Shown here: in pieces, positions 44,379 through 57,050 of the stretch
How the letters are laid out: the number at the start of each line of letters is the position of its first letter
Position numbering within the stretch: position 1 is the first letter of the stretch
DNA from: Alphaproteobacteria bacterium
GTDB taxonomy: Bacteria; Pseudomonadota; Alphaproteobacteria; JAAXGF01
Direction of reading: 5' to 3'
Assembly: GCA_963555825.3 (NCBI GenBank)
Contig: CAUVXB020000002.1
Span: 3,296,001 to 3,360,000 of the forward strand
DNA length: 64,000 bases
Position numbers and translations under genes: made by a program
Notes under the pieces: model-generated
Databases searched by the model: none
The model's input: only the letters and a program-made list of their open reading frames with translations
What the model was told of the DNA's origin: nothing

Positions 44379-44786
44379 GGTGCTGTCACGGTAACTGGCT
44401 GGTGTCAGCTGCGGGTGGCGAGTAGCTTCCTGTTATGAACAAGATCAGCTACCGCCGACATCGGTTTCCTGCAGAGATAATCCAGCGCGCCGTCTGGCTG
44501 TGTTTCCGGTTTCCGCTCAGTTACCGCGATGTGGAGGATCTGCTCGCTGAACGTGGTGTCGATGTTTCTTACGAGACGATACGGCGCTGGGCTTTAAAGT
44601 TTGGGCAGGCCTATGCCCGAAAACTGAGACAATCACGCCCTCGACCAGACGACCGGTGGCACCTTGATGAGGTGTTTTCCTCCATCAACGGAAAACGGAT
44701 GTATCTATGGCGGGCGGTGGACAGCGAGGGTGAGGTGCTGGATATCCTGGTTCAGTCCCGGAGGAACAAGAAAGCAGCACTCAAGC
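44379..44786 (+). mobile_element. IS6-family element, 5' half (same as 15774 copy)
   Basis: Left IR GGTGCTGTCAC. ORF identical to the 15774 copy up to NKKAALK. Confidence 0.9.
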
Positions 44787-44918
44787 GGCTTTGTCAAGTT
44801 AATCGGATTCACTCCGAAATCTCCGTAAATTGTCGATGGCTACTTTACGCAATTTCAATGGCTTAGTCTCGTGGAGAAATGCCGAAAACAGCCTGTAATC
44901 AGTTAACTTGACAATGCT
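44787..44918. mobile_element. IS6-type MITE (about 132 bp)
   Basis: GGCTTTGTCAAGTTAA ... TTAACTTGACAATGC, resembling the IS6 IR at 16508-16523. No ORF. Confidence 0.7.
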
Positions 44919-44919
44919 G

Positions 44920-45290
44920 ATGGCACGGCTACTTCGGCTTCTGCGAAACACCGTCCACGCTTCGAAGCCTTGACCAGTGGGTGCGGCGGCGGCTTCGTGC
45001 CGTCGTTTGGCAGCAATGGCGACGCGGGCCGAAGCGCTATGCGGAACTCCGCAGACGCGACGTCGGCCATGTGCTGGCCGCGCAGACCGCCGGGAGTGCC
45101 TGTGGCCCCTGGCGCCTGAGCAACAGCCCCGCGCTGTCCATCGCCATGTCAAACGCCTTCTTCAGCCAACTCGGTCTGCCGTCCCTCGTCCCCCAACCGA
45201 CCGCTTAATCCGCCGAACCGCCGTGGTACGTGACCCGTATGCCCGGTGGTGTGGGAGGGGTGGCGCCGTGAGGCGCCCCCCTATCCCGAT
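44920..45290 (+). mobile_element. Group II intron (class C-like) 3' remnant: maturase tail plus domains V and VI
   Basis: WHGYFGF...LDQWVRRRLR...GPWRLSNSPAL, DV gaaccgccg...cggtggtgtgggagg, 3' end cctatcccgat. Confidence 0.88.
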
Positions 45291-46017
45291 CCATCACTTC
45301 TTCTCTCGTCAAGATGGCGATCGCGCGCCGCAGTCGCCTGACTCGCGCCTACTCGGCCGCCTGTCGGTACAACCTTTGAAAACGAACGTTGCCCTGCATT
45401 TCGTCGTCCGCCTCCCCCATCTCATCAAGAATTTCGCGAAGTGTGTATCGGTATTGCGGAGCAATCCCTTCGGGACCAATGACCCTGCTGAGGATCTCGA
45501 GTGTCGGTCCAGGGCGCGACGTCGCCTGTCCGCTCTCGCGAAGGCGAAACAAGTTCGTGTCGATGGGCTGCAGGTAGTCGAGGGCCCAGTCGGTGGCGTC
45601 GGGAAATGCGTCCCCGCACTCCGCAAGCAGGTCCACCATCGCCGTCGCTGTTCCCGGAGTGTTTCGGTCAGCTCGCGCAGGCCAGTACGCCCGAAGCCAC
45701 CGACCCACCTTCTCCCTCCAGACTTCCGCCCGCTCCGCGGCTTCGCCCTTCAGCCGCTCCTGCAGGCTGGCGAGAACCGTCGTCAAAGCGGCTTCCGACA
45801 TCACTCCCACTACAACGTGAACTTCTTCACCGGTCAGTTCGCCGGGAGCCTCAAGGCAGATCGTCATGAACAACAGAGTGAGATTGCGTTCGGTGCGGGC
45901 ATTCAGATTGCCCGCTCGGAAAAGGTCGATGAAGGCTTGCTTGAGAGCGAGGAGTAGGTCAGGTCCGATGGTCCGCGACCAGCCGTATGCGTACCAGAGA
46001 TTGTTCGCTTCCTCTGA

Positions 46018-47180
46018 TACCAACGGCGCAAAATTCTGACTCGCAAGGGATTCCCTTTTTGGGCTGGATGTGATTCAAGGCTGCGGCGAAGGAGATTCGC
46101 CATGTCAGTATGCATTGCTCTTCGGGACGACTACGACAGCATTGAGCTCCGGTGTTTGGCCAAGCACAGTCGCGATCCCCGCCAAGTTCGCCGGCTTTTG
46201 GCCTTGGCGGCGGTTTACGACGGCATGAGCCGAGCGGAAGCCGCTAAGGTCGGCGGCATGGATCGCCAGACGCTGAGAGACTGGGCGCACCGCTTCAACG
46301 ATGAAGGGGCAGACGGCTTGAAGAACCGTCCCGGTGCGGGCCGCCCCCGGCTCTTGACCGACGAGCAGATGGGCGAACTGTCGGTGATCGTCGAAACGGG
46401 CCCCGATCCAGAGATTGACGGTGTGGTTCGCTGGCGGCGGGTTGACCTGAAACGGGTGATCGAAGAACGCTTTGGCGTGATCTATAGCGAGCGGGCGATC
46501 TCCGACCTTCTCGTCGCGCTGTCCTTCTCCCACATCAGCGCCCGGCCGCAGCACCCCAAGCAGGACCAGCGGGTGATCGAGGCGTTCAAAAAAACTTCCC
46601 CCGCACGCTCGCTGCCCACCTAGCCGGTCTGCCCAAGACCAAGCGGGTCGAGATCTGGTTCCAAGACGAGGCCAGGCTGGGACAGAAGAACGGGCGTGTG
46701 CGCATTTGGGCGAAGAAGGGAACAAGGCCACGCCTGCCCGCCGATCAGCGCTACACGAACGCCTACCTCTTTGGCGCAATCTGTCCCATGGGAGCCAAGG
46801 GTGCCGCTCTCATGCTCCCCTTCGCCAACACAGCCGCCATGCAGATGCATCTCGACGAGATCAGCTGCAACGTCGCCGCCAAGGCCCATGGCGTCGTCCT
46901 GATGGACCGCGCCGGGTGGCACAGCACCGACCAGCTCAAGGTCCCCAAGAACCTCACCATCATCCTGCTGCCATCGCGCTCGCCCGAGCTGAACCCGGTC
47001 GAGAACATCTGGCAATACCTCCGCCAGAATTGGCTCTCTAACCGCGTCTTCGAAGATTACGACGCCATCATCGAGGCCGGTTGCCAAGCCTGGAACAAAC
47101 TAATCGACCAGCCCGAGACGATCATGTCCATCGGAATGAGAGATTGGGCGATTTCAGGTCAATAATTAGTGCCGTTGGTA
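46018..47180 (+). mobile_element. IS630-family element (frameshifted transposase 46102-47165)
   Basis: Ends TACCAACGGC / GCCGTTGGTA, tga duplication, A7C slippery site near 46588. Confidence 0.93.
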
Positions 47181-48402
47181 TGACTCCCCCGGACGGAAGC
47201 GCGGAATCAGTCTCTCGCTCACCCAGTCCTGATCGACGGCGTACAGGTAGTGCAGCCTCGTAGCAATCATCACTCGGCCGAGGTGTCCGCTTGGCTCCTC
47301 GGTGATCGCGTTGAAGTATCCGCGCACGGGTTCCGGAAGGCGATTGCCGACTCTGGGCCGATGCTTCGATAGTCGAGCGAGTGCCGCGTCGGCGAGTTTC
47401 CCTGCTGCGTCGTTCAATGCATCGGTGAGTGGCTCGTCCAACGCGACGATTTGAGCGGGTGCCCGCCTACGGACGGCGTTCCAGCCCTTTTCCCACAGTT
47501 CGGCGATTTCTCCTTCGCGGTCCGTCCCGTAGGTCCTTGCCAGTTCCTTCACGAGTTCGGCGACCGCGTCTTCTACTTCGTCAAACAGCCAATCCGGAGC
47601 ATTCACAAGACATCGGGCGGCGCGTTCGTGAAGGCGGATGTCTGCCTCCTCTCCTTCCGGTGAGTTTGGAACGGACCACAGGAACCACTTCCAAAAATCT
47701 GCCCGCCACGTTCCTTCCGCCGCGAGTTCCTCCAGGGCCTCGATTGCCTTCTCGGGCTGTGCGCGGGCAAGACCGCGGAATTGGTCCTGGCTCGCGCTCT
47801 CGTCCCGGATTGCCCTCGCAACGTCCGCCACCGTTCCCTCGAGCAGGTCCTGGGGCGCGAACTCCTCATCGCCAATCCATCGTGCTTCGCCCCGCCAGCG
47901 TAGAAACTCGTCACGCTCCGCGTCAGCGTCCCGCTCTACTTCCAATCCTTCGGCGAGCTCTCTCGACTTCTTGTCGAGCCGCGCCCCGGAGACCGAGAGC
48001 TTGTGCAGGCGCAAGGCCTGCTCACGGCGGATCAATGCGGGGTAGTTCGGTGGCGGGTTCCTCGGTTTCGGCTTCGGCCCCTCGTGAATCGCACATACGA
48101 TTTCGACGCGCAGGTCCCGCGGCAGCCTTGCTCCGGCCTTGCGGAACAAGCGCAACACCTCCCGCTGGAGCTCCCAGTTCCAAACGCCACGCGGTCGGCG
48201 AGTGAGGAGAAGGGTCCTCGCCAGATTGATATCGGACTTCGGATCCTCGGTCAGGGCGTGAAGTGCAAGCCTTGTGAATAGTGGCTTGCGGGACAGCACC
48301 CAGCGACGGAGCAGGTTTTCCGCGCGTGCACGGTCGATTGCAGGTAAGCGTTCGTTCAGGCCGTGGAATCAGCGCGGGCGTTTCCATTCGCCCCGGCCGA
48401 TT

Positions 48403-49284
48403 TTAGCGATTGAGGGTGCGTTTCCAATCCCGTCGCAGGGGCCGGAGCCAGACATCCTTTTTAGGCTTGTCGGACTGCCTGTCCCGGTCGTAGCGCCCGC
48501 GCCCCTGGGTGGTCCCGACGCGGGTCCAGCCGGAGGCCCTGTAAACGGCGCCGGTGTAGCGCGGGGTCTCGACGAAGGTCTCGATGAGCACGGGCGTGGT
48601 GTTGTAGCGCTCGGTCCAGTCATCGGGCAGGCGCCGGCGGATGATGGCCAGGATGTGCGAACCCAGGTTGGGGATATTGATCCAGGGCAGGATCAGGAAT
48701 CTCGGGTTGTCGACCACGAAGGGAAGGTTCTTCTCGCGCAGTTGCCGTGTCCATCCGATGAAGTTGTCGCGCGGGGCGAGCTTCCACGCGGCGGTGGAGA
48801 AGCCGAGCATGGCGAGCGGCCAGCCGTCGCGGTCGTGGACGGCGTAGCGCATCTGGGCGCCGACCAGGGTCTTGTATCCGAGATAGTGGTAGCGGGCGAC
48901 GAACTCGTTCCAGAGCTTGCTCTCCCGGGTGCCGCGCACGACGGGGCGCAGGTCGAGCGGACGGACCTTGTCGAGGGTCGTCGGGGCCGGGAACAGCGGC
49001 GCTTCGGTGTCCGGCCCGAAGACGATCGGCCCGGGCCGGTTCTGCCGTCCCTGCGGCGCCGGCAGGGCGATCAGGCCGTCCCTGTGCATGGCCAGCATGG
49101 CGACCCTGGCCATCATGTCCTTGAGGCCGCCGTCGGGCTTGAACCAGCCGATGCGCCGGCAGAACTCCTTCGACAGCATATGGCGGTTCAACGGCGGCGG
49201 CCCGGCGATCAGCGCGCGCAGCAGCGCCATTTCCCCGGCGGTGAAGTCGCGGCCGTAATAACGGCACTCGATCGCGCCGGTCAC
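48403..49284 (-). CDS. DUF4338 (DruA-like) protein
   Basis: YYGRDFT, LWNEFVARYHYLGY, RDNFIGW, NPRFLILPW, NLGSHILA, LIETFVE, YRASGW. GTG start overlaps the transposase TGA. Confidence 0.85.
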   Translation of the reverse strand: MTGAIECRYYGRDFTAGEMALLRALIAGPPPLNRHMLSKEFCRRIGWFKPDGGLKDMMARVAMLAMHRDGLIALPAPQGRQNRPGPIVFGPDTEAPLFPAPTTLDKVRPLDLRPVVRGTRESKLWNEFVARYHYLGYKTLVGAQMRYAVHDRDGWPLAMLGFSTAAWKLAPRDNFIGWTRQLREKNLPFVVDNPRFLILPWINIPNLGSHILAIIRRRLPDDWTERYNTTPVLIETFVETPRYTGAVYRASGWTRVGTTQGRGRYDRDRQSDKPKKDVWLRPLRRDWKRTLNR

Positions 49285-51944
49285 GCCGGCGCCATGAGTT
49301 CGCGCCTGCGCTCCTCGCTCATCGACCATGGCAGCCACGGCGACAGGTCGTCCGGCGGTTTGCGATCGTTCTCCGCGCACGCTGCGAGCCACGTGTCCAG
49401 CCAGCTCAGGATGTCGATGCCATTCATCGAGAGCGTGCCCACCACCGAGTACATGATCGCCGTGAACCTGGCGCCGTCCTCGCTGTCGGAACCGAACGAC
49501 AGCCGTCGCCCTATGGCCGGACCTCGTAACAATCTTTCGGCGCGATTGTTATCCAGAGGCACCTGCGGGCGGTCGACGAACACGCTCAGCCCTTCGCGAT
49601 GGTTCAGCAGCGAGCGCAGCGCCCTGCCCTGGCGCGCCTGGTCCGGCAGGCCGGCCAACTCCCGGGCGGCCTCCGCGAACAGGCCGTCGAGCGCCGCCTT
49701 CAACGCGCCCTGCGCCGCGTCGAACGCCGGCGTCTGGCGCTTGATCACGGGGTCGTAATGAGCCAACCTCGCCTCGTTCAGGCGGTAGACCGACGCGATC
49801 CGCTCGATCCATCCCTGGCACCAGTCCGTCAGTCTCACCTGGCCGGCCGCGCACTCGACAAAATCGCGGCGCATATGGGACCAACAGAATGCAAGGGTCA
49901 CTTTGCCCTCGCGAAGGCGAGCGAGTCGCTTGTAGGCGCTATAGCGATCGCAGACGATGACCGTGTCGAGGAGAGCGTCGCCGAACAGCTTCTGCGCCGC
50001 CTCGGCGCTGCGCGAGGGGTCGATATGGAAAGAGACCGCGTCATTGCTGACCGAGACCCACAGCCAGGCGCGGCTCGAGCGGTCTTCCCCGCGAAGTTCC
50101 TGGACGCGCCAGCTGGTCTCGTCGGCATGGCGCAGCGCCGCCTTGTTCTGGTGCGCAAGGATCGCCTCGGCCAGCGGCTCGAGCAGCGGCACGAACCGCT
50201 TCAGGCTGTCGGCCAGCGTCCCCGGCGAGACCGTCAGCCCTTGGGCGGACATCCACGCGGCAACGCGGTGCACGGGGCGGAAGCAGGCACAGTGCTCGAA
50301 CAGGAAGCGTGCCCAGAAGCTGGTCCCGTAGAGCGTCCTGGGGAACAGCCGCGGCACCGGGGGCGCCGACACTTCCATGGGCGACGACGCGCACTCGCAG
50401 GTCCGGCGCCAGCGCGGACGGCGGATCACGCGCTTGTAGGCCTTGACCTCGATCTCGACGAGGGTGGATTCCTCGGCGCCGTTCGGCGCATAGGGCTGCC
50501 CGCACCGGCCGCAGACGCACGCATCCGGCGGCGGGTTGTGCTCTTCGGTGCGCTCATCGAGCCCGGGCCGCTGGGTGCGGCCGTGGCCGGGCGCGCCGCG
50601 CTGCTGGCCGCGCTTGTGTTCCGAGCCCGGCTTGTCCTGCTGCTCGCTCTTGCGGCCGTAGAGCGCCCTCGACAGCACCGCCCCGGTCGCACGAAGCCTC
50701 TCAAGCTGGACTTCCAGCGTCTCGATCCGGTTCCGCGACGTCTTCGCGCCCTTGCGCAGGCGGGCGTTCTCCCGGGACAGCGACTTGATCGTAGCCTTCT
50801 GGCGCCGCGACCTTCGCAGAGCCCTGCGGAGATCGGCGTCTGCAACGGACAGCGACTTCGACAACGTCTTCCTGACCGCTCGAAGCCCGGCAAGCTCGGC
50901 CTCGAGTGCCTTCCTGATCGCGCGAAGCTTGGCAGGCTGAACCTCCAGCGCCGCTTTCCGGGTCTCCAACTTCCGCATGGTCCTGCGCAGACGGCCGTTG
51001 TCCTTGCGCAGCGCCTCGATCGTCGTCTTCTGGCGCCGCGATCGCCTCAACGCCGCGCGCAGTTGAGCAGCCTCGTCGGACGGCAGCTTCGACAGCGTCG
51101 CCCCGGCCGCCCGAAGCTTGGCGAGCCGGGCCTTCAACTTCTCCTTACCGGCTTTGGACACCTCCAGGGCATGGCGCAGCCAGAAAACCTCGTCGGACAG
51201 CGACCGGGCGCGGGCCTCGGCGTCGCCCAGTATCCTCACCTCCCGGTGGAGCCGAAGGGACTCGCTGGACAGCTTCTTCGCGGTCTCCCTGATGCGCTCC
51301 GTCCTCTCCTTCTCCTGGTCGAGGCGCGTGTTCAGCCGGGCGTTCTCCTTGTCCCGCCGGACCACCTCCTTGTCGAGCCGGCGGAGTTCCGTGCGAAGCG
51401 ACCTGACGGTCTCCTTCTGGTCCGGGGAAGGCTCCAGGACGGTGCGCCGCCGGGGCGGAGCGGGCCACGGCCCGGTCGCGCCCTCACGGGCCTTCGATGC
51501 CGCCAGGGCCTTGCGCAGCCGGGCGTTCTCCTTGCGCAGCGCCCCGGCCGTATCGAAGGCCGACGCGATGCCGGCTTCAGAAAGGAGCGTCTCCAGGCGC
51601 GCCACTTCCGCCTGCAAGGACGGCACGTCCCTTGCCGTGCGGCGGGCTTCCTTCGTCTCTTCGACGGCCTCACTCAGCCTGCGCCGGCAGGCCTTGAACC
51701 GAGACTTCCACGAACCGCCATCGCTGCGGGCGGCCACTTCCGCCCAGCGCAGCTCTTCCGCCCGCGCTTCGGCCGCGTCCGCCCGCGCCCGTTCCCGCTC
51801 ACACTGTGACCGCCAGTCGCGCGGCGCGTGCTCCGGCACCGACACGGGGGACAACCGGACCCCGCCATTACCCTCGACCAGCGTCAGGTTGGTGCCAAAA
51901 TCCTCGTCCAGAACCACCATGCGCACGACGATAGCGCATGGCAA
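49281..51944 (-). CDS. IS66 transposase with a long repetitive coiled-coil N-terminus
   Basis: YGRKSE, GAPGHGR, CxxC zinc finger, HADET, CDRYSAY, CWSHMRR, DNNRAER. About 430 aa of N-terminal heptad repeats. Confidence 0.92.
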   Translation of the reverse strand: MPCAIVVRMVVLDEDFGTNLTLVEGNGGVRLSPVSVPEHAPRDWRSQCERERARADAAEARAEELRWAEVAARSDGGSWKSRFKACRRRLSEAVEETKEARRTARDVPSLQAEVARLETLLSEAGIASAFDTAGALRKENARLRKALAASKAREGATGPWPAPPRRRTVLEPSPDQKETVRSLRTELRRLDKEVVRRDKENARLNTRLDQEKERTERIRETAKKLSSESLRLHREVRILGDAEARARSLSDEVFWLRHALEVSKAGKEKLKARLAKLRAAGATLSKLPSDEAAQLRAALRRSRRQKTTIEALRKDNGRLRRTMRKLETRKAALEVQPAKLRAIRKALEAELAGLRAVRKTLSKSLSVADADLRRALRRSRRQKATIKSLSRENARLRKGAKTSRNRIETLEVQLERLRATGAVLSRALYGRKSEQQDKPGSEHKRGQQRGAPGHGRTQRPGLDERTEEHNPPPDACVCGRCGQPYAPNGAEESTLVEIEVKAYKRVIRRPRWRRTCECASSPMEVSAPPVPRLFPRTLYGTSFWARFLFEHCACFRPVHRVAAWMSAQGLTVSPGTLADSLKRFVPLLEPLAEAILAHQNKAALRHADETSWRVQELRGEDRSSRAWLWVSVSNDAVSFHIDPSRSAEAAQKLFGDALLDTVIVCDRYSAYKRLARLREGKVTLAFCWSHMRRDFVECAAGQVRLTDWCQGWIERIASVYRLNEARLAHYDPVIKRQTPAFDAAQGALKAALDGLFAEAARELAGLPDQARQGRALRSLLNHREGLSVFVDRPQVPLDNNRAERLLRGPAIGRRLSFGSDSEDGARFTAIMYSVVGTLSMNGIDILSWLDTWLAACAENDRKPPDDLSPWLPWSMSEERRRELMAPA

Positions 51945-54009
51945 ATCGCGTTACCAGCAGAAAGACAGCACCTTGTGGGGCCTCGCCTCAACGTGGGAGA
52001 TGCGCTTGACGGGACCCATTCCACGGCCTGAACGAACGCTTACGATTGCAGCGACCTCAAGATAGGCATCCCGCACCAGGTCAATCAGATGGCCCAAGCC
52101 CCCAGTCTCGCGGTGCCGGTTCTGGTCATGTGCCTTGATCGAAGCCCGGCACAAAGATGAATCCGAATAGATCGCGTCGTCTTCCTCTGCAAGCGCGAGC
52201 GCCTGTTCGAGGTGGGTCGTCAGCCTCTCCGCGTGGCGCGCGAGTACGCCTTCCTTTCGGAGGATCCTCTCAACATAGAACTCGGTGTTCTCGCCTCCGA
52301 CCACCAGCTTCGGATGGCCGCACGCGTCGATGGGCGCGATGGGTTCCGTGTTTCCGTCGAAGTACCGTGCGAATTGGACGTGGGTGGTAGGCCCCGGGAC
52401 CACGATGAGTTCTGGTGCCAGATCCGCAATGACCTCATCCTCGACGCGGCGCCGTTCTGGGTCGGAGGCCGCTGCCAAGTAGTGCTTGGAGCTCCAGAGG
52501 ACTCCCCTGAGGTTTCTCGGTTCGTAGTTCGACAGGATCGTCCAAAGAAGCCTGAGTCGCGGCGGGATGGGTGACTTGGCGTCGCTGAGGTTCGCCTCAA
52601 CCATGTCCCGCAGAGCCGGGTGCATGCGTCCGCCGTTCTTCAACATCCAGGCGAGGACCTGCGGCACGTGCAGGTGACGAGCAATCCAGTACGCGAGGCA
52701 GCGCCTCGTAGTGTCCAACGTGTTGGGGTTCTGGGACTGATATCCGCTATCGACCAACCGCACGAACGCGGGGCCCTCAGCTCCTGCGCCCGGGTTCGCG
52801 TCAGCGGCATCGCACGACAGCAGGCCCGCCTCCTGGAACGCGTCGAGCCATCTCTCGATCTTGGGGAAGTCTCCTTCGTCAACGGTAGGCGGCGCTTCGG
52901 CAAGCGCCGCCGCAGCCACCGGATCTTCCAATGCCCAGACGACGCGTTCGACCACAGGGTCGTTCGGTCCCGCCGGGAGTATGCCGATGTCGTTGAGCGC
53001 AATCTGTGGACGGGCATGGAAGGGGTCGCTTCGGATCCGGGCCCACGCGATCAAGGTCTCGCTCAGGAGGCGGTGCCCCTCCCGGTCGTCGTACAGAACC
53101 GGCCTGACGTTCTTCGCATGCCAGCTGTCGCGTGCCCTGTTCTTGCCTTCGGGTGTGCCGTTGTGGGGTGCGAACGCATAGGCGTTTGCGAAGCGCGCGC
53201 CCTTGTCGCGCTCGGCGGCAAGAGCATCGACCAGGTAGCTCATGACCGGATCGGCCACGCTGTACCCGACGAAGACGACGGTGAACTCGCGGAAGAGTTC
53301 GGTGACGAACCGAGCCGCCCAGCGCTCGGTCAGGTATGCACGCCCGAAATCGGCCGCAGTGAGGACGAGGTTCGCTCCGCCCTCGTCGGGCACGATGCGT
53401 CCGTGCAGGTGCACGAGGCTTGACCAGTTGTACCGCGTTGGCACGGGCAATTTTGGGGCGGCATCGACGCTGAGATTCGCTTCTCCGGCTTCGACAAACC
53501 GGTTGTCGAAGTTCGTTGTAACGAGGCGCGTCCCTCCTTCGGTCCTCGACAGGGTGAGTAGCGCCTCATGGACCCGAAGGGGAGCCGTTGCAGGTCTTGA
53601 GAGCCGCTCGATGACAGTTCCACGCAGCGCCTCAGGTCCCAGCCGATCGCTTCGCTCCAGCAGACTGAGCGCCTTGTCGAATTGTGGTCTCCGGCGGCTT
53701 CGATCCGGTTCATTGCGGTGAAGTGCCTCGTGTTCGACTTCATCGGCCTCGATTCGGTTCGCTTCGTAGACGTGCTCCACCAGCTCCTCGAAGTTGGGGA
53801 GATTCGACCCATCCCCGACCGAAACCCCCGCACCGCAGAAGAACACCACCGAACCCTCATCGACCTCATTCATGAGGTGGACTGGGATCCTCGGGCCCTC
53901 GGGTACGAGTTCAGGCATGGCGGATCCTTGCTTGCTCTTCTCTCATCGTGCTCGTTCCGCGGAGTCGTGTAGCCGGTTCCAGGTCGATGCAACCCATCGC
54001 AGTTCACCC

Positions 54010-54150: not shown

Positions 54151-55525
54151 GAGCTATTGTCAAAAGTTGTGTATGGGCTGATCATGCGGCGGCGCGATCC
54201 TGGCGTTCTCCATCTACGAATTTGACGCCGCGAATGATCTCGGCGAGATGGTTCGATCCATCGAGTTTTCTCCATTTTCTCTGAGCGCACTGGCATAGTT
54301 TGAAGACCATGGCCATCGCCGTCTTGCGCGACAGGCAGCCCTTGGTCCGGTAGGTGCGCAGACGAACCGTGGCGAACGTGCTCTCGATGGGGTTGGTCGT
54401 GCGTACATGCTTCCAGTGCTCGGCGGGGAAGTCGTAGAACGTCAGCAGGACGTCGCGGTCCTTGGCCAGGCAGGCCGCGGCCTTGTCGTACTTCGGCCCG
54501 TAGGCTTCCAGGAAGAAGTCGAAGGCGCTCTCGGCATCCTTCCTGGTTTCGGCCATCCAGATGTCTTGCAGGCGCCCCTTGGCTTTCTTTTGCAGACCCT
54601 TGGGCAGCTTGTTCAAGACGTTGCCCGTCTTGTGAACCCAGCAGCGTTGCTCGCGGGCGCCTGGGTAGACTTGGCGGAGCGCCTTCCAGAAGCCGAGCGC
54701 GCCGTCGCCGAGCGCCAGTTGCGGACCCATTTCAAGGCCGCGCCGCTTGAGATCGAGCAGAACTTCGAGCCAGGACTGCTCACTTTCGCGATAGCCGTCG
54801 GCGATGGCGATCAGTTCCTTCTGTCCCTTGTCCGTGGCCCCGACGATCACCAGGATGCACTGCTTCTCTTCCTCCATGCGGGCGCTGAAATAGATGCCGT
54901 CCACCCAGAAATAGACGTAGCGCTTGGCCGTGAGGTCGCGCCGTTGCCAGCGCTCCGCCTCAACCCCCCAGACCTCTTTCAGCCGGGTGATCGTGGAGGC
55001 CGAAAGCCCCGGCGCGGAGCTCCCCAGGAGCGCCGCCAAGGCTTCCCCGAAGTCGCCGGTGGAAATGCCCTTCAGATACAGCCATGGCAAAAGGTCTTCC
55101 AGGCTCTTGGCGCGGCGCAGATAGCGCGGCAGGATCGCCGACGTGAAGCGGATGGCGCCGTCCCCCCGGTCCCGCACACGGGGTTGGCGCACGCTCACCG
55201 GGCCGATCCCGGTCTGGATGAAGCGTTCCGGCAGATATCCATTGCGGACAACCCGGCGGCGGCCGGCGGCGTCAACAAGCGCCGCATGGCTACCCAAAAA
55301 CACGGAGACCTCGGCCTCAACGGCTTGGGCCAACAACTCGCGAGCTCCAGCTTGTAGGACTTCCGTCAACGGATCTTTCTGAAAATCAGATGGGTTTTGA
55401 AAAGCAACAACGGTATTCTCTTTCATGGCGTATCCTTCCTTGGCTTAGCTCAAGTGGTGACATCAACAATCACCAGGATACGCCGCCTTCATTTCAACGC
55501 CGTACACAAGATTCGGTTATAGCTC
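54151..55525 (-). mobile_element. IS256-family element, copy 2
   Basis: Same 1375-bp element as 26405-27779. 9-bp TSD cgatcatcg. Confidence 0.95.
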
Positions 55526-55528
55526 CGA

Positions 55529-56437
55529 TCATCGGCACTCCACCTCAGTCCAGGGGCCTCCGGGAGGCCACGAGGCAACCTCTGTGCGGGCCAGCACGGG
55601 CTGCAGGAAGGTGCGCAGATCATTGTTGACCTGGACGAGTGAAGCGGACGCTATTGCGAGCCGGTCGCGCGCCAGGAAGGCCCGCCACTGGGCTTCCTTC
55701 TCAAGGGCAAAACTATCGCTGAGGCCGACAGGTACTTGTTCCGGCAAGGGGGTTCGGCGTCGCTCGAAGGTCCGACGGATGGCGTCCGCCAGGTTGTCGC
55801 CTTCGAACGCGAATGTCTGCGCGATCATCCAGAGGTCGTAGAAATCCTTCATGCGGCTGTTCGCGATACCGAGCGAGACGATCGCTTCAGTCTTCTCGGC
55901 GACGACCGTTTCAGGGGGATAAGCGCGTAGGACAGGCGCGGGCGCGTCGAGAAGGGCCGGGTATTCGATCTCGATTGGCTCAGGCGTGATCACGTCGCCA
56001 AAACCGACGTCGATCTGGATGGGCAGTCGCGCCCCGGCGATGGTTGCGCCGGTTCTGACGCGCACACCGGGATATTCGTCTTCGTCGCGGATTGGAGCGG
56101 CTTCGACGCCTGCAACGTCGAAGACGACCCCATCGTCGGGTACCTCCACAGAACAGATGGAGCGGATGCTTGCCGCAACCATTGCGGGATCGGGATCGCC
56201 ATGACCCAGCAGGTCAAGGTCACGGGTCGGTCGGAAGGGATCGTCCTGCCAGATTGCGAAGAGCATCGCACCCTTCAGGACAAACCGTTCGCGCTGGTCG
56301 GAGACGCTGAGTCGGTAGAGCAATCGCTCGAGCGCGTAACGGGTAAGGAGAATTTGAAAATCGGTCTGTTCGACGCGGGCGCGCGCGAGCAGTCGGGCGC
56401 GCACAGAGGCGCCGATATTGCGAAGCTCACGTGCCAT
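55529..56437 (-). CDS. AbiEii nucleotidyltransferase toxin (type IV TA)
   Basis: ERLLYRL, FVLKGA, RPTRDLD, AEK, NSRMKDFYD. Confidence 0.92.
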   Translation of the reverse strand: MARELRNIGASVRARLLARARVEQTDFQILLTRYALERLLYRLSVSDQRERFVLKGAMLFAIWQDDPFRPTRDLDLLGHGDPDPAMVAASIRSICSVEVPDDGVVFDVAGVEAAPIRDEDEYPGVRVRTGATIAGARLPIQIDVGFGDVITPEPIEIEYPALLDAPAPVLRAYPPETVVAEKTEAIVSLGIANSRMKDFYDLWMIAQTFAFEGDNLADAIRRTFERRRTPLPEQVPVGLSDSFALEKEAQWRAFLARDRLAIASASLVQVNNDLRTFLQPVLARTEVASWPPGGPWTEVECR

Positions 56438-57050
56438 CGGCGACCATCGCTTCGACATAGGGCCGCATCACGGACCAGACACGCGCCGTGCGAGCGAATT
56501 CCCAGAGCTGGTCGGGTGTGACGCGCCCGCTGCGGAGTCCTTCGCGGAGTCCTTCCAGCGCGATGTCGAGTCCGATCTTGTTGCGATACCGGAAGCAGTC
56601 GACGATCGACTTGGCGGGCTCGAATATTGGGACCTCAATACCCTCGATGAGATGCCGCTTCACCCCTCCCGCGAGGGCGTGGCCGCTGAATCGCACGAAG
56701 TGGACCGGGGGGTATTCGACGTTGGGCTTCCATCCGGTGCGGTCGATGGCGATCCAGACAGCGGAGGGCATTTGGAGTGTCAGTTCATGAAACTGGAGCG
56801 CGGATGTAAGGCAGATCACTCCCCTGGGTACGCGGGCTGAGGCTTCTGCAAGGCTGCGTCGGGGATCCGGAATCGCGTCGACGAACTGATAGAGGCCGCG
56901 CGCAACGCGCGCCACGACGCCCTCGCGAACCAGCCGGGCAACGGTCTCGGGCCCAACGCCAGCGTTGCGAAGATCGCGCATGCGGACTAGTCCCCTCTGG
57001 CGACAGAGACACAGGACCATGTCGCGCTGTTTCGTCGGATTAGGTGACAT
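56427..57050 (-). CDS. AbiEi antitoxin (type IV TA)
   Basis: RVARGLY, ICLTSALQFHELT, SIVDCFRYRNKIG. Overlaps the toxin start. Confidence 0.9.
   Translation of the reverse strand: MSPNPTKQRDMVLCLCRQRGLVRMRDLRNAGVGPETVARLVREGVVARVARGLYQFVDAIPDPRRSLAEASARVPRGVICLTSALQFHELTLQMPSAVWIAIDRTGWKPNVEYPPVHFVRFSGHALAGGVKRHLIEGIEVPIFEPAKSIVDCFRYRNKIGLDIALEGLREGLRSGRVTPDQLWEFARTARVWSVMRPYVEAMVADGT

Follow-up and report, generated by a model that had tools for sequence, protein, structure and literature searches.

The element occupies 48344..52043 of the window (the whole 64,000-nucleotide stretch of DNA analysed here), an IS66-type insertion of 3700 bp in the host contig with two long open reading frames (ORFs) between its ends. 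An inverted-repeat search places the terminal inverted repeats at 48344..48369 on the DUF4338 side, where the first letters are GTAAGCG and the sequence is identical in other copies, and at 52018..52043 on the transposase side. The two are complementary at 26 of 26 positions; no other long inverted pair in 47800-52600 is perfect, the runner-up being 29 nt at 83%. The target-site duplication, GATTGCAG, lies directly outside, with its left copy at 48336..48343 and its right copy at 52044..52051. IS66-family elements typically carry terminal inverted repeats and an 8-bp target duplication, and both are present here together with a DDE transposase of the TnpC type.

Both genes lie on the reverse strand. 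The first, at 49281..51944, encodes an IS66-family (TnpC-like) DDE transposase of 887 aa when read from a TTG codon; its start is uncertain within 811-887 aa, and gene callers give near-identical proteins of 881, 879 or 811 aa. Residues 537-826, the catalytic domain (49467..50336, reverse strand), match PF03050 (DDE_Tnp_IS66) with E 2.1e-58, and residues 449-855 match the IS66 transposase family NF033517 at 275 bits (cut-off 180). The PF03050 score is about 200 bits for this transposase versus roughly 300-360 bits for canonical IS66 copies. N-terminal to the DDE domain, Cys478/481/516/518 are invariant and make up a zinc-finger-like motif. The remaining N-terminal extension of ~440 aa (50601..51944, reverse strand) has SMC-like coiled-coil matches and internal repeats, which appear in the DNA as 65-nt repeats at 50728, 50959 and 51487. 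It is the fastest-evolving part of the protein, with a mean identity of 0.43 among variants.

The second gene (48403..49284, reverse strand) encodes a 293-aa protein with a GTG start, whose residues 104-267 match PF14236 (DruA/DUF4338) with E 2.6e-39. Its GTG and the TGA stop of the transposase overlap as GTGA at 49281..49284 (reverse strand), an arrangement that probably couples their translation. Relatives support the 293-aa GTG start: ATGA or GTGA occupies the corresponding position in 75 of their 78 loci. The transposon ends 59 bp past the DUF4338 stop. An outward-facing sigma-70-like site, TTGGAA-16 nt-TAAAAT, is predicted at this end (48400..48427, reverse strand) by consensus match, with one such site found versus 0.2 expected in shuffles. 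No Rfam family was found in 47000-54000.

An earlier note on this DNA had described perfect 26-bp ends, an 8-bp duplication and two genes of 887 and 293 aa joined by a GTGA overlap, and the repeat search, the ORFs, the overlap and the profile matches all agree with that description. Its proposal of a distinct two-gene IS66-type element also holds: PF05717 (TnpB_IS66) occurs at three other places in the genome, all canonical IS66 copies, and nowhere in the element.

Copies and mobility

The genome contains eight full copies of the element, 99-100% identical and differing by 0-27 bases, plus one that is split by another insertion sequence. Seven copies (this one and six others) are each flanked by their own, different 8-bp duplication. 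In one copy (C2:2488608) the DUF4338 gene is frameshifted and the duplication is kept, which fits a jump either before or after the break.

The copy in the window lies inside a defence gene, as the earlier note had recognised. The N-terminal part of Dsr1 (SIR2_2), 625 aa at 52044..53918 (reverse strand), contains the SIR2_2 domain and matches PADLOC Dsr1 positions 3-614. The C-terminal part, 389 aa and a stop at 47166..48335 (reverse strand), matches positions 628/655-1047, and the two flanks form one frame that is preserved across the insertion. A 3516-nt contig from a public DNA run (X5) contains the empty site: it joins 48334 to 52043, skips 3708 bases and retains at least 255 letters on each side of the joint, giving an uninterrupted Dsr1 allele. 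The same joint is present in a second DNA run (X1), where the short side measures 21. This is a real insertion sequence with recent activity, mobile, present in several copies and naturally polymorphic. Contigs from RNA libraries (X15, X17) span the element and not its flanks, and this coverage may be DNA carry-over, because the element is 50-100 times deeper than its flanks in DNA run X5.

The neighbourhood also holds AbiEii and other insertion sequences besides Dsr1. The earlier note had thought the landing in a defence gene notable and suggested a look at target-gene bias. Across the flanks of the eight full copies there was no PADLOC match beyond Dsr1, so that a PADLOC-recognised gene is found at one of eight. 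One of the other copies splits an arginase-family gene and one abuts a Mu-transposase C-terminal domain; the remaining flank content includes a nearby Meth_synt_2 gene and several frames without a family, and the flanks of one full copy (L007) contain no frame of at least 70 aa. The insertion into Dsr1 was probably incidental.

Conservation of the gene pair

The earlier note had proposed searching for this pair and its ends across genomes. The DUF4338 protein retrieved 79 related loci, of which 78, all close relatives with at least 82.6% identity, were examined. In 75 of these 78 the DUF4338 start and the stop codon of an IS66-type transposase share 4 nt (ATGA in 67, GTGA in 8), and the paired loci span Alphaproteobacteria, Gammaproteobacteria and Bryobacterales. 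Inverted ends of the GTAAGCGTTCGG type with at least 20 matches are present in 48 of 56 full-length loci, and identical 8-bp flanks at 22 or more related loci. A plasmid collection yielded no DNA match to the element and only two distant matches in a protein search.

The association was also examined from the transposase side in a sample of 201 genomes of the class, with tallies that are lower bounds. Outside this genome, nine of the ten long-frame IS66 DDE matches listed (744-853 aa, 184-198 bits) have a PF14236 match on the same strand, some 0.5 kb downstream. Among the matches listed, canonical IS66 matches above 250 bits are either in genomes that lack PF14236 or distant from it. The transposase and DUF4338 genes are conserved as a unit across phyla.

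We then compared selection on the two genes in 30 distinct variants (435 pairs, which are not independent). DUF4338 has a mean identity of 0.857, compared with 0.717 for the C-terminal 445 aa of the transposase and 0.434 for the transposase N-terminus; the 78 loci were picked by DUF4338 similarity, which inflates this difference. The ratio dN/dS is less affected by this choice of loci, although not free of it; its median is 0.23 for DUF4338 versus 0.44 for the transposase, and in 98% of 425 usable pairs DUF4338 has the lower value. Purifying selection is tighter on DUF4338 than on the transposase. The two proteins also co-vary (Mantel r 0.76, with 0 of 2000 permutations as high).

The same domain is joined in frame to other transposases. 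Fusions of an IS66 DDE domain with DruA (P0192, P0202) are accompanied by fusions of DruA with Tnp_DNA_bind/DDE_Tnp_1/Dimer_Tnp_Tn5 of IS4/Tn5 type (P0204, P0231, P0244, P0263) and with DDE_Tnp_1_assoc of ISAs1 type (P0036). A genome of the same family as this one (G003) has a 598-aa frame combining DruA with an ISAs1-type transposase, which corresponds to a recurrent 610-aa open frame with about 40 occurrences, as well as a 760-aa DruA and DDE_Tnp_1 frame. A DUF4338 domain is likewise present in a Thiodictyon plasmid gene whose annotation is ISAs1 transposase. The DUF4338 domain is therefore fused to at least three transposase families: IS66, IS4/Tn5-type and ISAs1-type.

These observations bear on whether DUF4338 is passenger cargo, either a Mom-like modifier that shields host or replicon DNA from restriction or a stand-alone defence factor riding transposons. 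Such cargo would fit the nearest solved fold, that of Mom, an anti-restriction enzyme (PMC13219725), the membership of its namesake DruA in a defence system, and the presence of Dsr1, AbiEii and other insertion sequences in the element region. However, neither in-frame fusion to three transposase families, nor a stop overlap in 75 of 78 relatives, nor constraint above that of the transposase is expected of a passenger, and the protein stands well apart from Druantia DruA (25 versus 656-700 bits) in a genome without a DruE1 match. We consider cargo improbable. The earlier note had offered a transposition accessory and a defence or anti-defence factor side by side; the former is favoured because DUF4338 is the more constrained gene, co-varies with its transposase and forms in-frame fusions with transposases of three families, and the latter is disfavoured on the same grounds.

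Fold of the DUF4338 protein

The AF2 model of the DUF4338 protein has a pLDDT of 92.9 and consists of a winged-helix-like domain (~residues 1-78), a linker and a GNAT-fold domain (~residues 103-293). Foldseek returned 272 PDB matches to this model at E<=0.001, with the GNAT fold throughout among the matches listed, and 778 of 999 chains reached Z>=8 in VIA-align. By its predicted structure the protein belongs to the GNAT superfamily, as the earlier note had wondered. DUF4338 is also called a GNAT by Aravind and colleagues (PMC10853773). Sequence searches against solved structures, with the protein and with its profile (A1), gave no meaningful match. For the N-terminal domain, Foldseek gave no match at E<=0.001, and the best wide VIA-align match had Z 5.3 in a list with many winged-helix proteins, which is suggestive only of a weakly winged-helix-like domain in the model.

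Residues H133, R183, R195 and E235 are invariant in DUF4338 sequences merely 37-49% identical, and S209, R242, Y248 and R262 are nearly so. The majority consensus has Y134, and by eye most aligned sequences carry E or D at position 239. A conserved N-L-A/G-S lies at what we take to be the equivalent of the GNAT pyrophosphate-binding loop.

The best VIA-align match is phage Mu Mom (8bv8_A; Z 14.3, rmsd 3.9, 171 aligned), which leads the GNAT cloud by ~1 Z unit, the next match having Z 13.2. By hhalign, DUF4338 and Mu Mom align with E 0.024 using one Mom sequence and 0.0045 using four, at a probability of 2-8%. The putative active-site set of Mom comprises H58, Y59, R111, S124, D149, R151 and Y159; S124, R111 and R151 are essential, mutants of H58, Y59, D149 and Y159 have reduced activity, and deletion of an HTH-like insertion (residues 175-209) kills activity (PMC13219725). 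In the hhalign alignment, which is colinear at low statistical support, H58/Y59, S124, D149 and Y159 correspond to H133/Y134, S209, E239 and Y248 of DUF4338, so that five of the seven putative active-site residues align, under weak alignment support, with conserved positions. R111 and R151 fall at gaps, with no secure counterpart, and a 23-residue gap in DUF4338 falls where Mom has the HTH-like insertion, as judged from the sequence alignment alone. The Pfam Mom family (PF25680) did not match the DUF4338 protein at E<=0.01 and scores Mu Mom itself at 253 bits; in one Atlas cluster of 293-aa DUF4338 proteins, it is assigned to 12% of members.

The same folds are compatible with a protein acetyltransferase that regulates transposition through the transposase or a nucleoid protein, tethered to DNA or the transposase by its N-terminal domain. 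The top matches are mostly protein or small-molecule N-acetyltransferases (SpeG, RimI, Naa60, Naa50), ~1-2 Z from Mom, and the N-L-A/G-S motif sits at the pyrophosphate-loop position. Yet the conserved residues align with the putative active-site set of Mom rather than with a generic GNAT signature. A common nucleic-acid substrate also fits better, because the partner transposases have no sequence similarity outside the DDE fold, and we regard protein acetylation as unlikely. Complex prediction for transposase residues 440-887 with DUF4338 (score 0.01, mark 0.32) speaks neither for nor against binding.

The GNAT fold might instead be catalytically dead, with DUF4338 serving as an architectural or DNA-binding subunit, for example in end recognition or target choice. 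This would suit the winged-helix-like N-terminal domain, head-to-tail junctions that suggest end-directed insertion, and a genuine DruA that does not obviously keep S209 or R195. The invariant H133, R183, R195 and E235, along with the near-invariant S209, R242, Y248 and R262, are nevertheless typical of an active site and make a dead enzyme very unlikely.

Relation to Druantia DruA

As genuine DruA references we took DruA genes from the same class that lie in druA-?-druD-druE loci. PADLOC DruA1 scores the DUF4338 protein at 25 bits versus 656 and 700 bits for these references. The match to PF14236 covers profile positions 44-225 at 136 bits here and 3-296 at 273-287 bits in genuine DruA, and hhalign relates DUF4338 to DruA with E 2.9e-5 over 92 columns. 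S209 and R195 are not obviously kept in genuine DruA. The earlier note had seen no druB-E genes at the locus, consistent with a transposon end 59 bp after the DUF4338 stop, and a search of the genome for DruE1 gave no match. All 13 PF14236 matches in the genome are copies or fragments of this element. An orthologue of Druantia DruA was rejected on the scores (25 versus 656-700 bits), the partial profile match and the genome without a DruE1 match. The DUF4338 gene here stands outside any Druantia system.

Proposed function

On balance, we think it probable that this active insertion sequence, of a distinct two-gene branch of IS66, couples its coiled-coil, TnpC-like transposase to a helper of transposition with winged-helix-like and Mom-like GNAT domains. 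DUF4338 would be an element-intrinsic helper needed for the element's own propagation, and is probably an acyl or aminoacyl transferase acting on nucleic acid or on the transposition complex. In the version that we prefer, it would mark DNA at the element ends or at the target and in this way license or restrain transposition. Host Dam methylation, which controls IS10 and IS50, provides a model for such marking. More speculatively, and with a low probability, DUF4338 could be a Mom-type nucleic-acid modifier, possibly with an aminoacyl-tRNA donor, whose covalent mark on DNA at the ends or target would act as an epigenetic switch for IS66, IS4 and ISAs1 transposition.

Few accessory proteins are known from insertion sequences, and most of these are regarded as regulators or ATPases. 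A partner with the look of an enzyme would, if confirmed, represent a new class of transposition factors: its conservation exceeds that of its transposase, it recurs with three or more unrelated families of transposase, and it is similar to an enzyme that hypermodifies DNA. Searches of main texts found no paper on DUF4338 with IS66 or on DruA with a transposase; by titles and abstract starts, none of the literature on DruA concerned transposons, and by title nothing relevant on IS66 and GNAT appeared among the matches listed. The role of the DUF4338 partner in transposition is not described in the literature found. In the available part of the YprA/Druantia preprint, there is no whole-word mention of DruA function.

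If this helper reading is true, it gives DruA, whose gene comes first in Druantia type I and is uncharacterised, a concrete biochemical hypothesis that can be tested. If the Mom-type reading is true, Druantia type I would have borrowed a relative, DruA, as a self-marking module. Druantia type II has a methyltransferase in the place corresponding to DruA of type I. In practice, the label 'Druantia protein DruA' on such genes inflates defence-system counts, since 13 of 13 PF14236 matches here belong to a transposon.

Comparison with known systems

The canonical IS66 group (IS66, IS679, ISRm14) is organised as tnpA-tnpB-tnpC, and in the ISBst12 group of the family the transposase is the sole gene; the element falls within neither definition. 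Like canonical IS66 it has a DDE_Tnp_IS66/NF033517 transposase, an 8-bp duplication and ends beginning GTAAGCG. Unlike canonical IS66 it is without tnpA and tnpB, judging from its two long ORFs and the PF05717 search, its transposase has an extra coiled coil of ~440 aa, and a DUF4338 gene follows the transposase. With ISBst12 it shares an IS66-type transposase without tnpA/tnpB, but differs in that 75 of 78 relatives have a conserved second gene, coupled by overlap, inside the ends.

For the C-terminal domain of DUF4338, the nearest solved structure is Mu Mom (PDB 8bv8; PF25680), a Gly-tRNA-dependent DNA aminoacyl transferase. The two have in common a G-x-x-Y-[RQ]-A-[AS]-N-[WF]-x-x-[VI]-G motif, and in the weakly supported alignment the putative active-site H-Y, S, D/E and Y positions are colinear. 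Unlike Mom, which is phage-encoded, DUF4338 is encoded by insertion sequences, and its sequence appears to replace the HTH-like insertion with an N-terminal domain. What DUF4338 has in common with DruA is the central core of the Pfam family, with its R-D-x-x-I-[GD]-W motif. DruA of type I is ~410 aa in length and the protein described here 293 aa, and, in contrast to druA, its gene is multi-copy, enclosed by transposon ends and without druB-E partners.

Results

The element (window positions 48344..52043) is bounded by terminal inverted repeats at 48344-48369 and 52018-52043 that are complementary at 26 of 26 positions; no other long inverted pair in the region is perfect. A direct target duplication, GATTGCAG, lies beside both ends. 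It contains two minus-strand genes. The transposase frame (49281-51944, 887 aa from a TTG) carries an IS66 DDE domain (PF03050, E 2.1e-58, residues 537-826) and scores 275 bits against NF033517 (cut-off 180), although its start is uncertain, near-identical proteins being called as 881, 879 or 811 aa by gene callers. Its N-terminal portion, roughly 440 residues, is an internally repetitive coiled coil; four invariant cysteines come next, ahead of the DDE domain. The second frame (48403-49284, 293 aa) matches PF14236 (DruA/DUF4338) over residues 104-267, and its GTG start overlaps the TGA of the transposase gene. This confirms the structure read in the earlier note: 26-bp ends, an 8-bp duplication and two genes joined by a GTGA overlap. 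At the DUF4338 end, a promoter-like site (48400-48427, minus strand) faces outward into the downstream C-terminal fragment of Dsr1, the SIR2-type defence gene split by the element; it is a consensus match only, with 1 found against 0.2 expected. An RNA-library contig of run X17 joins 48640 to 51871 with TTG between, skipping 3230 bases (depth 6.65, shorter side 30 letters), and is weak evidence for a possible miniature derivative formed by internal deletion.

The host genome (G000; 6.04 Mb in contigs C1 and C2) holds eight full copies with 0-27 base differences from the window copy, together with a ninth copy and several fragments. In the ninth, the transposase gene is interrupted by an IS5-like element of 1.46 kb (C1:223482-224943, equal to L009:4033-5494) with DUF772 and DDE_Tnp_1 domains. 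Seven copies have their own, differing 8-bp duplications, and the element is a live insertion sequence. A 3516-nt contig from public DNA run X5 passes straight from 48334 to 52043, with over 255 letters on either side, so an uninterrupted Dsr1 allele occurs in nature and the window insertion is recent or strain-specific; the same joint appears in run X1 with one side short. Head-to-tail junctions, in which the end of one copy is followed by a 5-9-bp spacer and the start of the next, occur twice in G000 (C1:1317588-1317648 and C2:3234380-3234438) and seven times in relatives (L026, L047, L090, L093, L096 and twice in L094). The spacer of the C1 junction contains the 8-bp duplication belonging to the full copy, as would result from a copy inserting immediately next to an end already in place. 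Run X1 also holds, at low depth, junction spacers absent from the assembly (GCCGCC, AAATGTTC and TCTGGCCGCC), and these joints could be circles or tandem dimers.

The sequences on either side of the window copy make up a single frame of 625 + 389 aa that matches Dsr1, with a SIR2_2 domain and PADLOC E-values of 1.5e-103 and 8.5e-25 for the two sides. Immediately next to the split gene are an IS256/Mutator-type transposase gene (54182-55426, minus strand) and an AbiEii toxin-type gene (55529-56458, minus strand), and IS630-like HTH and IS240-type DDE fragments lie further upstream (44435-46623); these surroundings are an island of insertion sequences and defence genes. Landing inside a defence gene had been singled out as notable, but there is no evidence of such a bias: among the copies with flanks examined, only the window copy hits a recognised defence gene. 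Of the others, one interrupts an arginase-family gene and one lies against a Mu-transposase C-terminus, the remaining examined flanks having no family or PADLOC match. No consensus is obvious among the 8-bp duplications.

The DUF4338 protein (P0002) was searched against one genome per species, which yielded 417 confirmed stretches. From these, the top 79 loci (at least 82.6% identity) were retained; their assemblies are labelled Alphaproteobacteria, Gammaproteobacteria (Azotimanducaceae), Rariloculaceae and Bryobacterales. After removal of L069, where the best match is on the opposite strand of the locus, the stop of an IS66-type frame overlaps the DUF4338 start in 75 of 78 loci (ATGA in 67, GTGA in 8), and the gene pair is a conserved unit; elsewhere the transposase match ends 27 nt upstream (two loci) or the arrangement differs (one). 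This 4-nt overlap couples the two genes, presumably in translation. Inverted ends of the type GTAAGCGTTCGG with at least 20 matches are found in 48 of the 56 loci having a transposase frame of at least 700 aa, element lengths range from 3.2 to 3.8 kb, and identical 8-bp flanks occur in at least 22 loci, a lower bound because the boundary finder is crude. Some relatives, L100 (3570-7132), L057 and L096, have much longer inverted ends (78, 89 and 206 matches, against 26 bp in the window), as if a copy of one end had taken the place of the other.

Several kinds of IS66 transposase are found in G000 by PF03050 search; TnpB_IS66 adjoins the three highest-scoring, canonical ones, and all 13 PF14236 matches fall within copies or fragments of the element. 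Across a sample of 201 genomes from the same class, an IS66 DDE match (E<=1e-20) occurs in 28 and PF14236 in 12. In this tally, which covers up to 11 matches per genome, canonical DDE matches (>250 bits, frames of 500-640 aa) are either in genomes that lack PF14236 or distant from it; in the lower-scoring long-frame type (744-853 aa, 184-198 bits), at least 9 of 10 cases outside G000 have PF14236 on the same strand, about 0.5 kb downstream. IS66 transposases are therefore generally without a DUF4338 partner, but the long-frame branch carries one consistently. At one class-sample locus (G095:C481:601-2504), the DUF4338 match lies upstream, not downstream, of the IS66 transposase match.

DUF4338 is under strong constraint and is co-inherited with the transposase. 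Among 30 distinct variants from loci picked by DUF4338 similarity (435 non-independent pairs), mean identity is 0.857 for DUF4338, 0.717 for the C-terminal 445 aa of the transposase and 0.434 for its N-terminus, and in 96.6% of pairs DUF4338 is better conserved than the transposase. Its median dN/dS is 0.23 versus 0.44 for the transposase C-terminus, and is the lower in 98% of 425 usable pairs. The distance matrices of the two genes are correlated (Mantel r 0.76, 0/2000 permutations as high).

The partner also occurs outside IS66 and is repeatedly fused to transposases. Among 8305 family representatives (E<=0.001), Pfam domains place an IS66 DDE domain before DruA in P0192 and P0202, DruA before Tn5-type Tnp_DNA_bind/DDE_Tnp_1/Dimer_Tnp_Tn5 in P0204, P0231, P0244 and P0263, and DruA before DDE_Tnp_1_assoc in P0036. 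G003, which belongs to the same family as G000, has a 598-aa fusion of the DruA core, without the N-terminal domain, and an ISAs1-type transposase. This frame corresponds to 610-aa open frames with a DUF4338 match that occur about 40 times (L105, L107); a 760-aa frame fuses DruA to a DDE_Tnp_1 domain, and the paired IS66 and DUF4338 genes occur there unfused as well. Thiodictyon plasmids carry the DUF4338 domain within a gene annotated as ISAs1 transposase, and a free DUF4338 gene whose neighbours are an integrase and an IS91 transposase. Tnp_DNA_bind is found on 42% of members of one Atlas cluster. A DUF4338 and IS4-type fusion stands in tandem copies in G003 (L105, L107), and in L105 a tyrosine-integrase gene is followed by one fusion copy.

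The AF2 model of DUF4338 (pLDDT 92.9) has a GNAT fold at residues 103-293 by model comparison, as had been guessed and in agreement with a remark in PMC10853773. The top VIA-align match is Mom, the DNA-modifying protein of phage Mu (8bv8_A, Z 14.3, rmsd 3.9, 171 aligned), followed by Naa60 (13.2) and a cloud at 12-12.8; the lead is modest, at only about one Z unit. That DUF4338 is a protein acetyltransferase is a less likely rival reading. For Mom, hhalign with a 31-sequence alignment gives E 0.024 against Mu Mom alone and E 0.0045 over 115 columns against four Mom-family sequences, in an identical colinear register. The Pfam Mom model does not match P0002. Pfam Mom is assigned to 12% of members of one Atlas cluster of 293-aa DUF4338 proteins, which we take as a lead only. 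The N-terminal 78 residues, modelled with confidence (pLDDT 84), form two strands and three helices. Foldseek gives nothing significant for them; their VIA-align matches, the best at Z 5.3, include many winged-helix DNA-binding domains, and the domain may be winged-helix-like. A rival in which DUF4338 is a non-catalytic DNA-binding subunit would build on this domain, and a catalytic partner on the conserved polar residues of the core.

Discussion

The element is a mobile two-gene unit whose DUF4338 partner would be catalytic and would serve the element's own propagation, not the host. Its substrate would be a nucleic acid or the transposition complex. The transposases that the partner accompanies have nothing but the DDE fold in common, so a shared substrate such as DNA seems more likely than a specific protein interface. 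We favour a covalent mark at the ends or target that would license or restrain transposition. A literature search of main texts, outside supplements, ISfinder and TnPedia, found nothing linking DUF4338/DruA to IS66 or transposition.

A less likely rival is that DUF4338 is anti-restriction or defence cargo; DruA, with which it shares a Pfam family, sits in the Druantia defence system. In the class sample, the Pfam family comprises single-copy, full-profile matches (positions 3-296, 273-287 bits) and multi-copy, core-only matches (positions 45-225, ~130 bits). Two full-profile matches lie in loci with DruD1 and DruE1 and reach 656 and 700 bits on PADLOC DruA1, versus 25 bits for P0002, whose alignment with such a DruA is confined to 92 central columns (29% identity); DruE1 has no match in G000, in line with the absence of druB-E genes seen in the earlier note. 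P0002 therefore represents a separate subfamily sharing a core with DruA, rather than a stray Druantia gene.

A DNA-marking partner finds its closest comparison in Mom. According to the passages retrieved from PMC13219725 (2026), where DruA, DUF4338 and transposons go unmentioned, Mom uses Gly-tRNA as donor and dsDNA as target; its putative active-site residues are H58, Y59, R111, S124, D149, R151 and Y159, of which R111, S124 and R151 are essential. Against a close kinship with Mom, DUF4338 is missing the essential HTH-like insertion, its alignment offers R111 and R151 no securely matched counterpart, and the Pfam Mom model fails to match it. The hhalign register pairs Mom W48 with DUF4338 W125, H58 and Y59 with H133 and Y134, S124 with S209, D149 with E239 and Y159 with Y248. 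H133 never varies and S209 and Y248 hardly do; Y134 is the majority-consensus residue, and most sequences of the alignment, as read by eye, have E or D at position 239. The DUF4338 core is a Mom-like GNAT with conserved polar residues, and the two proteins have in common the motif G-x-x-Y-[RQ]-A-[AS]-N-[WF].
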